The notes below the pieces were generated by a model, which was given only the letters and a program-made list of their open reading frames with translations, had not been told where the DNA came from and did not search any database. Made by a program: the position numbers and the translations under genes. A stretch of 64,000 nucleotides of DNA. Origin: Defluviicoccus sp. (GTDB taxonomy: Bacteria > Pseudomonadota > Alphaproteobacteria > MPNO01). The DNA lies in contig JAJEHI010000048.1 of assembly GCA_022823775.1 (NCBI GenBank), positions 42,267 through 106,266 on the forward strand. The letters run 5' to 3'. Below, in pieces: positions 10,933 through 31,292 of this stretch (position 1 is its first letter; every line of letters starts with the position of its first letter).

Positions 10933-11029
10933 CTGTCCCCGAACTTCCCGACCGGTCCCGCAGTGGCCCCGTTTGTACGCGCATAGTCACGCCGATCCAA
11001 GGGCCACGCCGGCCTTGAGCCTTGGATAT

Positions 11030-11076
11030 ACATTTTAATATGATATTGTTTGTCAATAGATATTGGAGACGAGACG
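11030..11076 (+). promoter_or_regulatory. AT-rich putative promoter/operator region upstream of vapBC
   Basis: An AT-rich stretch, tatacattttaatatgatattgtttgtcaatagatattggagacgagacg, in an otherwise ~70% GC context, immediately upstream of the vapB ATG. TA promoters are typically autoregulated by the antitoxin. Confidence 0.3.
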
Positions 11077-11307
11077 ATGCTGGTATCCAAGTGGGGCAAC
11101 AGCCTCGCCGTCCGGCTGCCGAGGTCGATGGTCGACGGCCTCGATCTGAAGTCCGGAGACCGGCTGGAAATCGTCTCCGCCACGGCGGAACGGGTGGTGC
11201 TCGCGAAGGACCGGCGGCGGGCGCGAGCGGTCGAGCGGATGCGCGCGCGCGCCTTGCCGCTGCCGGCGGACTATGTCTTCGACCGCGATGACGCCAACCT
11301 CCGGTGA
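11077..11307 (+). CDS. vapB: AbrB/MazE/SpoVT-family antitoxin (VapB)
   Basis: MLVSKWGNSLAVRLPRSMVDGLDLKSGDRLEI is a classic SpoVT/AbrB swapped-hairpin antitoxin N-terminus. Its stop overlaps the vapC GTG start. Confidence 0.7.
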   Translation: MLVSKWGNSLAVRLPRSMVDGLDLKSGDRLEIVSATAERVVLAKDRRRARAVERMRARALPLPADYVFDRDDANLR

Positions 11308-11711
11308 GCGCTTTCCTGGACACGAACCTGCTGATCTACGCGCAGTCCGCCGACCCGAAGGGCGAGATCGCGAGACAGGCGATCCTGACCGGCGGAACGA
11401 TCAGCGTTCATGTGGTGAACGAGTTCAGCGCCGTGCTCCGCCGCAAGTTCCGCCTCGAGTGGCACGAGATCGCGGATGCGGTGGACGACGTGCGGGCCGC
11501 GCTGGATCCGGTTCGCCCGGTCGGCATCGACACCTGGACCGCCGCCGTTGCCCTTGCTCGGCAGCACCGTTTCGAATTCTACGACTCGCTGATCCTCGCC
11601 TCGGCGCTCGAAGCCGGCTGCGATACCCTGTTGACCGAGGACATGCAATCCGGCCGCCGCATCGAGGGCCTGACGATCGTCAACCCGTTCGATACCGCTC
11701 CGAAGTCGTAA
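11304..11711 (+). CDS. vapC: PIN-domain ribonuclease toxin (VapC)
   Basis: 135 aa with the conserved acidic PIN residues FLDTN, NEF, FYDS and TEDM. GTG start, 4-bp overlap with vapB. Confidence 0.8.
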   Translation: MSAFLDTNLLIYAQSADPKGEIARQAILTGGTISVHVVNEFSAVLRRKFRLEWHEIADAVDDVRAALDPVRPVGIDTWTAAVALARQHRFEFYDSLILASALEAGCDTLLTEDMQSGRRIEGLTIVNPFDTAPKS

Positions 11712-11770
11712 GCCCCTCCCGAGCCCGCCCGTCCGCTTGACAGCGCACCCCGCCCCGGGGACCATCCGGC

Positions 11771-12943: not shown

Positions 12944-13047
12944 CCGGCCTCCGCGGCGCCGCCGGAAACGTCGAGCGATGTTTGCGGCATTTGTTGCATT
13001 TACGGCACATATACCCCATCTTGCGTACAGATGACAAGGACGCCGCG

Positions 13048-13503
13048 ATGGCGAGAGAGAACGCGACGAGGATGGAACGCGGCCTCCCCAGTGACCGGGA
13101 TGCGGCGCTGGCCGGCCGGGCACGCCGTCGGCTGGCGTCATGGATCGAAGGGACGGATCCTGTGCCCGCACGATTCGGTACCGCGGTGGAGCCCGTCGAA
13201 ATTCCCACCTCCGCGATGCGGCTGCTCAAGGAGATCCTGGATCAGATGGCCGACGGCAACGGTGTCGCGCTGTTGCCGATGCACGCCGAACTGACCACGC
13301 GACAGGCGGCCGAACTCCTGCAAGTGTCGCGGACGCATCTTGTACAGTTGCTCGACGCGGGACGGATCCCCTGCCGAAAGGTGGGAGCGCACCGGAGGGT
13401 CCGCCCCGAGGACATCCTCGCCTACCGCAACGCGACCGAGTCCGGTCGCCGCCAGGCGCTCGACGAAATGACGGCCCGCGATCAGGAACTCGGCCTGCAG
13501 TAG
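13048..13503 (+). CDS. Helix-turn-helix (excisionase/MerR-like HTH) DNA-binding protein, putative antitoxin of the downstream PIN gene
   Basis: The HTH region is ELTTRQAAELLQVSRTHLVQLLDAGRIPCRKVG. A PIN gene follows 4 bp downstream, a known HTH-PIN toxin-antitoxin arrangement. Confidence 0.6.
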   Translation: MARENATRMERGLPSDRDAALAGRARRRLASWIEGTDPVPARFGTAVEPVEIPTSAMRLLKEILDQMADGNGVALLPMHAELTTRQAAELLQVSRTHLVQLLDAGRIPCRKVGAHRRVRPEDILAYRNATESGRRQALDEMTARDQELGLQ

Positions 13504-13506
13504 ACG

Positions 13507-14087
13507 ATGGCCGGCCCCACGGCGTTACTCGACGCCAATGTTCTCTATCCGGCCGGCCTTCGTGATTTCCTGCTTCGGTTGGCGGATCGGCGCTTGTATG
13601 CGCCGCTATGGAGCGCCGACATCCATGCGGAATGGATGCGGAATGGATGCGGAACCTCCTCGCCGATCGGCCCCACCTATCCGCCGATACGCTGGAGCGC
13701 ACACGCGCGGCCATGGACTGGCACTTTCCCGCAGCAGTGGTGACGGGATATGCCGCCCTTGCCGAGATGCTCGATCTACCGGACCCTGGCGATCGCCACG
13801 TACTGGCCGCGGCGATACCGGGGCGCGCGGACGTGATCGTGACTTGGAACCTGCGGCACTTCCCTGCCGACCGTCTCGCGTCCAGCGTCCTCGCGGCACG
13901 CAGCCCCGACGCGTTTATCGCGGGTCTGTTCGAGACCGGTCCCGAAGAGGTCGTGGCGGCCGTGCGCGGGCATCGCGCGGCGCTGAGAAACCCGCCGCGC
14001 TCAGCATCGGATCACTTGACCGCCCTCGAACGCGTCGGGCTGGCGAGGACGGCCGCGCTGCTCCGACCGCACGTGGGCGCCATTTGA
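13507..14087 (+). pseudogene. PIN-domain toxin gene disrupted by a +11 bp frameshift
   Basis: Frame 1 (13507..13743) encodes MAGPTALLDANVLYPAGLRDF...ADIHAEWMRN. The sequence continues only in another frame (13608..14087: ...EWMRNLLADRPHLS...HVLAAAIPGRADVIVTWNLRHF). Removing one copy of the duplicated GCGGAATGGAT restores a single ~190-aa PIN ORF. Confidence 0.65.
13617..13638 (+). repeat. Perfect 11-bp tandem duplication (GCGGAATGGAT x2) that frameshifts the PIN gene
   Basis: The sequence atccatGCGGAATGGATGCGGAATGGATgcggaacc is seen directly. 11 = 2 mod 3, which matches the observed frame change. Confidence 0.8.
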
Positions 14088-14278
14088 TCGGCGCGCGCCC
14101 CGTACGCAGAGGTCCAAGGCTGGATAGCCGCGCCCGCGCCCGGTATGTTCGGAATATTCCCACAGGCGACCGGCCGCCGATGTGCGGACCGTTCCGGTAA
14201 AGTGGAACACTGGCACGGACCGGACCTCGATCGGATGCCGGTCTCCGTATCGCGCCCGCGCAACAGGTGACAGGAACG

Positions 14279-15865
14279 ATGTCGAAGACAGACAGCTTCG
14301 CGGGGACGACGGTCTCCCGCTCTCCGGTTTACGGCACGAGGGGCATGGTGGTCTCCGGCCATTCTCTGGCTTCGCTCGCCGGGCTCCGCACCCTCGAACG
14401 CGGCGGCTCGATGGTGGACGCGATGATTGCCTGCTCCGCCGCGCTCTCGGTGGTGGTGCCGCAGGCGACCTCGCTCGGCGGCGATGCGTTCATCCTCTAT
14501 CACCGGGCGGAGGACGGGCGGACCATCGGCATGAACGCGTCCGGCCACGCGCCCGCAGGCGCGACGCTCGATGTCTACGAGGCGGGAATCCCGCACCGGG
14601 GGCCGCTCGCCTTCAGCGTGCCGGGGATGATCCGGGGCTGGGAGCGGATGCACGAGCGTTACGGCAAGCTCCCCTGGGCCGATCTCTTCGCCGACGCTGC
14701 GGCGCTGGCCGAGGCCCACCCGCTGTCGCGCGTCCTCGCCGGCGCGCTCAACCTCTTCCGCGAGGACGTCGAGGGCGACGCCGGCTGCCGCGACGTCTAC
14801 TACCCGGACGGCAAGCCGCTGCCGGCGGGCGCGATCGTGCGCCAGCCGGCGCTTGCTCGCACGGTGGGTCTGATCGCCGAGCACGGGAGTTCGGTCTTCT
14901 ACGAGGGCGAGATCGCGCAATCTATCGCCGCGTCCGCCCGGGCGCAGGGCGGGGTGGTCGCGGCCGACGACTTCGTCGGTTACGAGCCGGAATGGGTCGA
15001 GCCCGTGGAATCGGGCTACCGCGGGCTCACCATCCGGGTCATGCCGCCCAACTCCTACGGCGTGCTGATGCTGATGCAGCTCAACGCGCTCGACGGCGTG
15101 GACCCGGCGGAATTGAGCGGCGACGAGAGCAGGCGTCTCGCCTACCTGATGCGCGCCCAGCGCGCAGCTTTCGCCGCCGGGCAGAAGCACATCGCCGATC
15201 CGCGCACGAACCCCGCGCCGATCGACCGCCTGCTGGGCGACGAGACGACGGCGGCGCTGCGCGCAGAAGTGATGGGAGCCGCGCAACCCGCGCCCGCCAT
15301 GGCCCATCCCGCCGCCGGCACCTCCTGCATCACGATCGCCGACGGCGAGGGCGATGGGATATCGGTGGTGCAGAGCGTGTTCCACGTCTTCGGCAGCGCG
15401 TTCCTCGACCCCGGCACCGGCATCCTGATGAATAACCGGATGACCGGCTTCAGCATCGATCCGGAGAGCGCCAACGTGCTGGCGCCCAACAAGCGCCCCG
15501 CGCACACCCTCAACCCGGTGGCGGTCCTCGACGGCGACAGGGTTCGCTACCTGCTGACCACGCCGGGCGGGCCGAGCCAGACGCTGTCCCACGTCCAGAT
15601 CCTCAACAACCTGGTCGACCGGGGCATGGAGCTGACGGCGGCCATCGAGGCGCCGCGCTGGTCGATTACCCTGCAGGGCGAGACACTGCTCGACGAAGAG
15701 TTCGACGACGGCGTCGCCGACCGGCTGGCCGACGAAGGCTTCACCGTCAAGCGGGCCGCGGGCGCGGCCTATTTCGGGTCCGCCAAGGTGATCGAGGTCG
15801 CCAAGGACGGCGTGCTGATGGGAGCCGCCGACAGGCGCCGCGAGGCCTTCGCGGTCGGCGCCTGA
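14279..15865 (+). CDS. ggt: Gamma-glutamyltransferase family protein
   Basis: 528 aa. The GGT-family nucleophile region is GTSCITIADGEGDG and the C-terminal small-subunit motifs are present. The stop overlaps the next start (TGATG). Confidence 0.85.
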   Translation: MSKTDSFAGTTVSRSPVYGTRGMVVSGHSLASLAGLRTLERGGSMVDAMIACSAALSVVVPQATSLGGDAFILYHRAEDGRTIGMNASGHAPAGATLDVYEAGIPHRGPLAFSVPGMIRGWERMHERYGKLPWADLFADAAALAEAHPLSRVLAGALNLFREDVEGDAGCRDVYYPDGKPLPAGAIVRQPALARTVGLIAEHGSSVFYEGEIAQSIAASARAQGGVVAADDFVGYEPEWVEPVESGYRGLTIRVMPPNSYGVLMLMQLNALDGVDPAELSGDESRRLAYLMRAQRAAFAAGQKHIADPRTNPAPIDRLLGDETTAALRAEVMGAAQPAPAMAHPAAGTSCITIADGEGDGISVVQSVFHVFGSAFLDPGTGILMNNRMTGFSIDPESANVLAPNKRPAHTLNPVAVLDGDRVRYLLTTPGGPSQTLSHVQILNNLVDRGMELTAAIEAPRWSITLQGETLLDEEFDDGVADRLADEGFTVKRAAGAAYFGSAKVIEVAKDGVLMGAADRRREAFAVGA

Positions 15866-30008: not shown

Positions 30009-31292
30009 TCAGGCGTCGGGCTTGCGGTTGCTCCAGAAATGCTCGGCGCGGCGGGCGAGGCGTTCGTCGAGCCAGCGCTTCGCGCGGGCGCCGTCGCCGC
30101 TCCTGAGCGCCGCCTCGAGCAACGTGTCGTGGAACGCGTCGCGCTGGGTCTTGCTGCCGCCGAGCCGGATAATCTCGTCCCAGATCGGCTCGGTCTTCGC
30201 GACGACCCGGTCCCACTCGCCCCGGACGAAGGCGTGCTGCGCCTCGTTGAGGGGGATCACCACCCGCTCCCAGATGTCGTTTCCGGACGCCCGGCCGCGC
30301 GCGCGCAGGATGTCGAGATGCCGCTCCGCGGTCTCCCAGTCGCGCCCGCCCGCGAGCGCCATGCCGACATGCGAATGGTGGAACGGCGAATCCTCGGGCC
30401 GGTCGAGCTGATCCCTGAGGATGTCGACGAAGGGCTGCCAGCGTTCGCCGACATCCATGCCGAAGAGTTCGAAGCGCCACAGCGTCGACACCGTGTTGCG
30501 CAGGTCCAGCCCGCGCGGCGACGGCTCGCGCTCGAACCAGTCGCGGCACATCTCCGAGGCCGCGTCGTAGCCGCCGACCGCGACCCGGAACAGCACCAGA
30601 TGCCACAGCATGTGGTTGCGGTAGTAGTTCATGTGGACGCAGGCATCGAGCGCCGGCGGCACCCGCTCCAGCGCCTCGTCGTAGGCCTCGAGGTCGTAGA
30701 GGGCGTGCGTCAGCGCGTGAACGCCCCAGGTATCCTCGGGATTTTGCGAGATGCAGCGCTCGGCCCAGCGCACCGCCTCCTCTCCCTCTCCCTGCTCCTC
30801 CAGGACGAAGGCGAGGAAGCCGTGCACGAAGGAATCCTCGGGCAGCGCCGTCAGCAGCGTCTCCGACAGTTCCCGCATGTCGGCGAAGCGCCCCTGGAAG
30901 AACCACATCAGATAGAGCCGCTGCGCGATCGCGAGGTCCGCCGGCCAGGCGCCGAGATGGGCGCGCATCGCCGCCTCGGCGTCGCGGGGCCGCAGGTTCA
31001 CATAGTGGTCGAGCGCGGCCACCAGGCTTCGTTCGCGCTCCGAACCCGTGCCGGCGGCTTCCCGGGCCGCCGACATGGCGGCACGCGCCTCGGCGAATTC
31101 CTCCTCGACGAAATGGGCTACCGCGAGCCCGGCATGGGCGGCGGCGAGCCCGGAATCCCCGGCCACCGCGTCGCGGAAGCAATCCACCGTGCGTCGGTCC
31201 CACGACAGCAACCCGTCGACGCCCCGGTCGAACGCGGCGGCGGCGTCGGACGAACCGGTCGACAGGGGAAGCCGATAGGCATCGAGCTGCAT
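30009..31292 (-). CDS. Tetratricopeptide-repeat protein
   Basis: 427 aa, entirely alpha-helical with a TPR-like repeat pattern (A/L/Y/W periodicity); cytoplasmic. Confidence 0.55.
   Translation of the reverse strand: MQLDAYRLPLSTGSSDAAAAFDRGVDGLLSWDRRTVDCFRDAVAGDSGLAAAHAGLAVAHFVEEEFAEARAAMSAAREAAGTGSERERSLVAALDHYVNLRPRDAEAAMRAHLGAWPADLAIAQRLYLMWFFQGRFADMRELSETLLTALPEDSFVHGFLAFVLEEQGEGEEAVRWAERCISQNPEDTWGVHALTHALYDLEAYDEALERVPPALDACVHMNYYRNHMLWHLVLFRVAVGGYDAASEMCRDWFEREPSPRGLDLRNTVSTLWRFELFGMDVGERWQPFVDILRDQLDRPEDSPFHHSHVGMALAGGRDWETAERHLDILRARGRASGNDIWERVVIPLNEAQHAFVRGEWDRVVAKTEPIWDEIIRLGGSKTQRDAFHDTLLEAALRSGDGARAKRWLDERLARRAEHFWSNRKPDA

Follow-up and report, generated by a model that had tools for sequence, protein, structure and literature searches.

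In Mycobacterium tuberculosis, Rv3749c has been named toxin VapC50 (PMC9173592). For toxin-antitoxin (TA) loci more generally, decay is known to begin with the toxin and to leave the antitoxin behind as an orphan (PMC7354431). The locus described here lies in a 64-kb stretch of DNA, hereafter called the window, and resembles VapBC50 of M. tuberculosis (Rv3750c/Rv3749c) in that an excisionase-type HTH protein is encoded first and is followed by a PIN_3 protein with a VapC50_C domain (PF26343). In the M. tuberculosis pair, Rv3750c, the partner of Rv3749c, is an excisionase-like antitoxin. Compared with canonical VapBC systems (those of Shigella, Rickettsia and Caulobacter, M. tuberculosis VapC15, VapC21 and VapC43, and FitAB), the antitoxin of the window carries an HTH_17 domain and not an AbrB, RHH or Phd domain, this domain sits toward the C terminus of a 151-aa protein, and the toxin type has an additional helical domain of about 65 residues. 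The toxin has a PIN fold, which places it among the VapC-type PIN toxins; the DNA-binding domain of its antitoxin is noncanonical, and the toxin is extended at the C terminus by a further helical domain. Very probably, the locus is a type II TA module of the VapB50/VapC50-like kind whose toxin has been inactivated by a real and recent slipped-strand duplication.

The antitoxin gene (positions 13048 to 13503, forward strand) is intact and encodes a 151-aa protein that matched Pfam HTH_17 (7e-13) and TIGR01764 (1.4e-11). The excisionase-type (MerR-like) HTH_17 domain occupies residues 82 to 128; it is preceded by a conserved N-terminal region, and a tail of 23 residues completes the protein. Only 3 nt separate the HTH stop codon from the start of the PIN gene at 13507, the two genes being co-directional with the antitoxin first; the borders of 13048 and 14087 that a preliminary description had assigned to the module were correct. 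In 80 of 81 related loci, too, the PIN gene is immediately preceded by a gene for an HTH homolog.

A repeat search of the region upstream of the antitoxin gene found three head-to-tail 9-mers on the forward strand, TTTGCGGCA, TTTGTTGCA and TTTACGGCA (12981 to 13007), which end 41 nt upstream of the HTH start and are followed on the same strand by a box, CCATCTTG, at 13016 to 13023. The pattern TTTRYKGCA has five matches in the window against 0.74 expected, and three of the five lie in this block. In the related loci L011, L012, L017, L042, L031 and L025, comparable repeats with a 9-nt period and, after them, C(C/T)ATCTTG are found ahead of the HTH gene, and distant Bryobacterales loci carry upstream units of the TTCGATTGC type. 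The 9-mer block, which is unchanged in the window, is a good candidate operator for the HTH antitoxin, and it is plausible that the orphan antitoxin autoregulates its own promoter. Scanning for a sigma-70 consensus upstream of the HTH gene gave no promoter-like site, and the organism may rely on promoters of another kind. The 9-mer pattern has a fourth exact match, TTTACGGCA at 14328 to 14336, just inside the start of the downstream gamma-glutamyltransferase (GGT) gene, possibly by chance.

The PIN gene is disrupted by a tandem repeat of period 11 at 13625 to 13654 (forward strand), for which TRF reported 2.7 copies, 100% matches and a score of 60. The layout of this array is ATGCGGAATGG ATGCGGAATGG ATGCGGAA, and an exact search in the register of the preliminary description placed GCGGAATGGAT at 13627 and 13638. 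TRF and the exact search thus bore out the perfect 11-nt duplication that had been said to shift the PIN frame, but the position first given for it, 13617 to 13638, was about 10 nt too low. The extra copy corresponds to 13636 to 13646, in a register that is arbitrary. In intact alleles the array has 1.7 copies, which amounts to the 8-nt direct repeat ATGCGGAA at a spacing of 11 nt, so that the event raised the copy number from 1.7 to 2.7 at a direct repeat that was already present. At offset 11 the array has 19 consecutive matches. No other perfect tandem in the 64-kb window (periods 4 to 30) is as long, the runner-up having 12, and the largest value obtained in 200 first-order Markov simulations was 16. 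The duplication falls on the codons of the near-invariant Glu42 and the invariant Trp43 of the PIN toxin. The sole other array in the window with a comparable score is an imperfect 21-nt tandem of about two copies at 31113 to 31163 (80 to 85% matches, TRF scores of 61 and 54).

The listing of open reading frames shows the toxin gene as two fragments on the forward strand. The 5' fragment (13507 to 13743) keeps native codons 1 to 46 (13507 to 13644), including those for Asp9, Glu42 and Trp43, and then runs through 32 out-of-frame codons to a stop at 13743; the N-terminal part, previously put at 37 aa, actually has 46 native residues. The 3' fragment (13647 to 14087) is shifted to the -1 frame with respect to the 5' fragment, comprises residues 44 to 189 with Asp89, Asp92, Asn111 and the C-terminal helical VapC50_C region, lacks Asp9 and Glu42, and is called by gene callers as a 146-aa ORF. 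The -1 frame stays open between 13566 and 14087 and contains ATGs at 13608 and 13647. The second of these was created by the repeat, and the two ORFs together span every native residue (1 to 46 and 44 to 189). No single polypeptide in the window therefore unites the conserved acidic residues of a PIN domain, since Asp9 and Glu42 are on one ORF and Asp89, Asp92 and Asn111 on the other; such a polypeptide was found after removal of 11 nt, as well as in L004, L006 and P0125, which are sequences related to the window.

Deletion of one 11-nt unit gave a 570-nt ORF of 189 aa, in agreement with the earlier statement that the N- and C-terminal parts join once one copy is removed. The repaired protein matched PIN_3 in a single uninterrupted stretch (profile positions 2 to 114 of 115, 1.1e-10) and NCBIfam NF046100 (RSP_2648_fam_PIN) from position 1 to 174 of 177, also uninterrupted (5.9e-41). 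Together with the HTH_17 and TIGR01764 matches of the upstream gene, these results upheld the original assignment of the pair as an HTH antitoxin and a PIN toxin. The NF046100 score of 140.3 bits is below the curated cutoff of 170, and the repaired protein is a relative, not an equivalog-level member, of that family. When the fragments were searched alone, the 5' fragment had no Pfam match and the 3' fragment had a PIN_3 match restricted to profile positions 68 to 114, the last third. Precomputed matches on the 146-aa product of the window are PIN_3, which is weak, and VapC50_C (PF26343); our own hmmscan returned no match to VapC50_C.

A database search found 3852 homologs of the repaired protein. 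Among the best 120 of these 3852, nearly all are exactly 189 aa long with precomputed PF13470 and PF26343 matches, the latter being present in all 120. In the alignment of these 120 to the repaired protein, none had a gap across the junction, and conservation was 99% for Asp9, 99% for Glu42 and 100% for each of Trp43, Asp92 and Asn111. Identity to solved VapCs is 11 to 17%, no PDB sequence match for this TA class was obtained at E values up to 1, and no biochemical characterization of the HTH_17 plus PIN_3/VapC50_C class was found in the literature searched.

We then compared the window with its closest relatives. An identical HTH protein is encoded on nine other contigs from ENA and Logan assemblies; these contigs were retrieved by an exact look-up of that protein, so that protein identity among them is a selection criterion. 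The array has 2.7 copies in the window, L001 and L009 and one copy (1.7) in L003, L004, L006 and L008. These four contigs and the gapless junction of the 120 homologs support the earlier proposal that the single copy is ancestral. A comparison with orthologous sister loci had also been suggested, and it yielded a single-copy gene for an intact 189-aa PIN protein in both L004 and L006. Apart from the 11-nt indel, all that distinguishes L006 from the window over the 1.3-kb module is two SNPs (one in the PIN gene and one intergenic) and a 2-nt indel; within the PIN gene, only 1 of 570 bases differs besides the 11-nt indel (Val84 changed to Met in the window). This near-identity of an intact allele to the window indicates that the lesion is recent, and the copies are identical and both halves otherwise open, all of which fits the term "very recent" used in the preliminary description.

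L003 and L008 are single copy but carry a TGG-to-CGG change at the position equivalent to window 13644, which replaces Trp43 by Arg. Trp43 is invariant in all 120 homologs and adjoins the near-invariant Glu42, and W43R may have arisen independently as another attenuating lesion of the motif hit by the duplication. A protein cluster at 90% identity contains seven intact 189-aa variants, P0122, P0123 and P0125 being intact members, and two 146-aa products. Both alleles probably coexist in one sample: the related scaffold L002 has a 100-N gap exactly at the repeat, its left contig ends with ...GGATGCGGAA and its right contig begins with ATGCGGAATGGATGCGGAACC, and these ends are the last and first bases common to both alleles, i.e., the branch points expected of a bubble. 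Going by these sequences, the duplicated allele represents true variation within a natural population, in which other strains keep an intact toxin.

More distant relatives were also compared. In L011 (OY763326.1), an alphaproteobacterial MAG of a related species, the gene order AbrB, M20 peptidase, HTH, PIN, GGT is the same as in the window, protein identities are 83 to 91%, and the PIN protein is intact with 189 aa. Thus, the module has been inherited in place, with the single copy as the ancestral state. L011 was also the best match in a scan of representative genomes (83% protein identity), among which the species of the window is not represented. A scan of JGI metagenomes with a 26-nt motif common to both alleles returned a single contig, L091 (Ga0073936_10313133), and no further copies of the window's population. 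L091 contains the exact 26 nt, GACATCCATGCGGAATGGATGCGGAA, as a single copy at 199 to 224 on the minus strand. It comes from an unrelated organism of lower GC content whose PIN protein is 45% identical, and it has the same HTH-PIN arrangement and the same kind of 9-nt-periodic upstream repeats as the window.

The ancestral sequence at the lesion, cATGCGGAAtggATGCGGAAc, encodes His-Ala-Glu-Trp-Met-Arg-Asn and holds the 8-nt direct repeat. Slipped-strand mispairing during replication between the two copies of ATGCGGAA, 11 nt apart, would have added one 11-nt unit, a step that fits the sequences. Among 81 other loci, the 8-nt repeat is present only in L091, with 7 nt in L011 and L012; it is thus an accident of codon choice in the lineage of the window and not a feature of the family. 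On the duplicated allele, a ribosome would exit the native frame past residue 46 and terminate 32 codons further on. The remaining 146 codons would encode a product without two of the four conserved active-site positions (Asp9 and Glu42) and have no convincing ribosome-binding site. Programmed frameshifting and transcriptional slippage were considered and rejected: the sole X XXY YYZ heptamer in the overlap, TTTCCCG at 13725, lies 70 nt beyond the lesion, frameshifting at this site would keep residues 47 to 73 in the wrong frame, and there are no homopolymer runs of at least 6 nt. Since Asp9 and Glu42 are separated from the rest of the conserved residues and there is neither a clear ribosome-binding site nor a slippery site, loss of nuclease activity and of toxicity would be expected. 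The lesion leaves the antitoxin gene and the repeats ahead of it unchanged. The antitoxin is most likely still made and would repress its own promoter, with no toxin left to neutralize.

It is unlikely, in our view, that the locus is instead a reversible contingency switch, in which slippage would toggle the toxin between an ON state (1.7 copies) and an OFF state (2.7 copies) and the OFF state would be a regulated or selected phase and not decay. The copy number differs among very close relatives and, to judge from the breakpoints of L002, apparently within one sample. A change in copy number also switches the reading frame, as in phase-variable genes, and the W43R change in L003 and L008 strikes the same motif, which suggests selection on toxin activity. 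Moreover, the duplication is potentially revertible, and perfect tandem duplications are lost again much more easily than point mutations are reversed. However, contingency tracts typically consist of many copies of a unit of 1 to 7 nt, and the tract of the window, with a unit of 11 nt in at most 2.7 copies, is far shorter than such classical repeats. Just two states were seen, no allele exceeding 2.7 copies, and the 8-nt repeat is lineage specific, as described above. In addition, the OFF state shares its haplotype with three private variants that occur in no single-copy contig (A at 13767, T at 14183 and a 2-nt deletion at 14250); such linkage agrees better with one origin than with frequent switching. 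If the locus did switch, it would be a natural contingency switch on a TA system and not a dead gene. We give a similarly small chance to the broader proposal that, in a population associated with a host (probably that of a sponge microbiome), the toxin is attenuated recurrently at its HAEWMRN motif, both through an 11-nt toggle whose two states would coexist within single samples and through W43R.

That the organism is really single copy and the extra 11 nt were introduced during assembly or polishing is very improbable. A short tandem repeat is the kind of site where errors are suspected, and the gap in L002 falls exactly there. However, the same 2.7-copy array is present in three separately assembled sequences produced by different pipelines, namely the window, L001 and L009. 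L001 is a 170-kb ENA metagenome scaffold that is 99.885% identical to the window over 10.4 kb, and its 12 mismatches elsewhere mean that it is not the same sequence as the window; L009 is a Logan contig that is 100% identical over 1371 bp. The exact 146-aa product is on record in NCBI, ENA and Logan. L001 and L009 may share the biological sample of the window, in which case their independence is one of assemblers and not of samples. In addition, a de Bruijn assembler with k of at least 21 should be unable to create an extra copy from single-copy reads, because the ancestral repeat is just 8 nt long and would form no cycle in the graph at that k; k-mers spanning two full units would consequently have to come from the reads. 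The private variants linked to the duplicated haplotype also argue against an error. The sequencing or assembly error that the preliminary description had offered as an alternative is, on these grounds, largely excluded.

The notion that the toxin is split but functional, its 78-aa N-terminal and 146-aa C-terminal products reassembling into an active or attenuated PIN nuclease, is extremely improbable: thanks to the duplication the fragments do overlap (residues 1 to 46 and 44 to 189) and the second ORF starts at the ATG created by the repeat, but the sequence GCGGAATGG before ATG 13647 lacks a clear Shine-Dalgarno motif, the first ORF ends 97 nt downstream of that ATG without stop-start coupling, the break lies within a predicted helix (residues 37 to 50) that carries Glu42, the N-terminal fragment bears 32 unrelated residues, and no such split arrangement was found among 80 related loci.

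Inactivation of the toxin by a genuine duplication, the explanation that we prefer, can be set against the state of the family as a whole. A disrupted PIN gene, either frameshifted or truncated, was found in 6 of 80 related loci (L037, L038, L039, L042, L051 and L054), in each case elsewhere than in the Glu-Trp motif; some of the six are long-read assemblies, in which sequencing errors are possible. Toxin loss is apparently common in the HTH_17 plus PIN_3/VapC50_C family. PIN homologs that are 63 to 83% identical to that of the window occur in L011 to L039, which are MAGs of many unrelated groups (Alphaproteobacteria, Spirochaetia, Latescibacterota, Entotheonella, Binatia, Acidobacteria, Thermodesulfobacteriota and "Porisulfidus"). 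Members with this degree of identity across unrelated phyla suggest horizontal spread, and the same data suggest that the module may have spread within one habitat. Many of the isolate names (SB06xx, COS, RHO, IRC and APA bins) resemble those of sponge-microbiome studies; what the closest MAGs are called and how they are classified is the sole basis for this habitat.

Exchange and loss were also observed around the module itself. Over the equivalent of 13048 to 14266, L005 differs from the window at 1 of 456 bases in the HTH gene, at 55 of 570 in the PIN gene and at 14 of 179 in the downstream spacer. This distribution points to a recombination breakpoint near the antitoxin/toxin junction, which would have put a swapped toxin allele beside an unchanged antitoxin. 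A second TA module, intact in the window, sits across the M20 peptidase gene from the HTH-PIN module and consists of an AbrB/MazE-type antitoxin gene (11077 to 11307) and a PF01850 PIN toxin gene (11304 to 11711). L005 and L007 lack this second module entirely, their sequence jumping from window position 11003 to 11720. In L011, only the AbrB antitoxin is present (1892 to 2122), with no PIN gene before the M20 gene at 2259, which makes it another orphan antitoxin. PADLOC found no PIN match and only a weak HTH-domain match for the antitoxin (mad1, 7e-6), a result that is uninformative on antiphage defense, and Rfam and tRNA scans of the window returned nothing.

The locus is a well-documented instance of a known process, TA decay, in a known but little-studied family, and as such it is ordinary biology. 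Its value is that of a clean natural example of the onset of decay of a chromosomal TA system, in which the toxin goes first through one microhomology-mediated duplication on the catalytic Glu-Trp motif, and in which strains with 97 to 99% identity still differ in carrying the intact, the duplicated or the W43R allele. It also draws attention to the HTH_17 plus PIN_3/VapC50_C class, which is very widespread, as the number of homologs indicates, and has no solved structure. The likeness to VapBC50 of M. tuberculosis is one of architecture. Unlike VapBC50, the copy in the window is a frameshifted pseudogene, and its host is an uncultured GC-rich (68.5%) alphaproteobacterium and not an actinobacterium. 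Toxin-first loss is to be expected in such systems, because loss of the antitoxin first would be lethal. As in the decayed TA loci described previously (PMC7354431), the toxin is disabled while the antitoxin gene and promoter region are kept; in contrast to them, the lesion in the window is a single, perfectly preserved and potentially revertible 11-nt duplication, and the intact allele is still segregating in the population.
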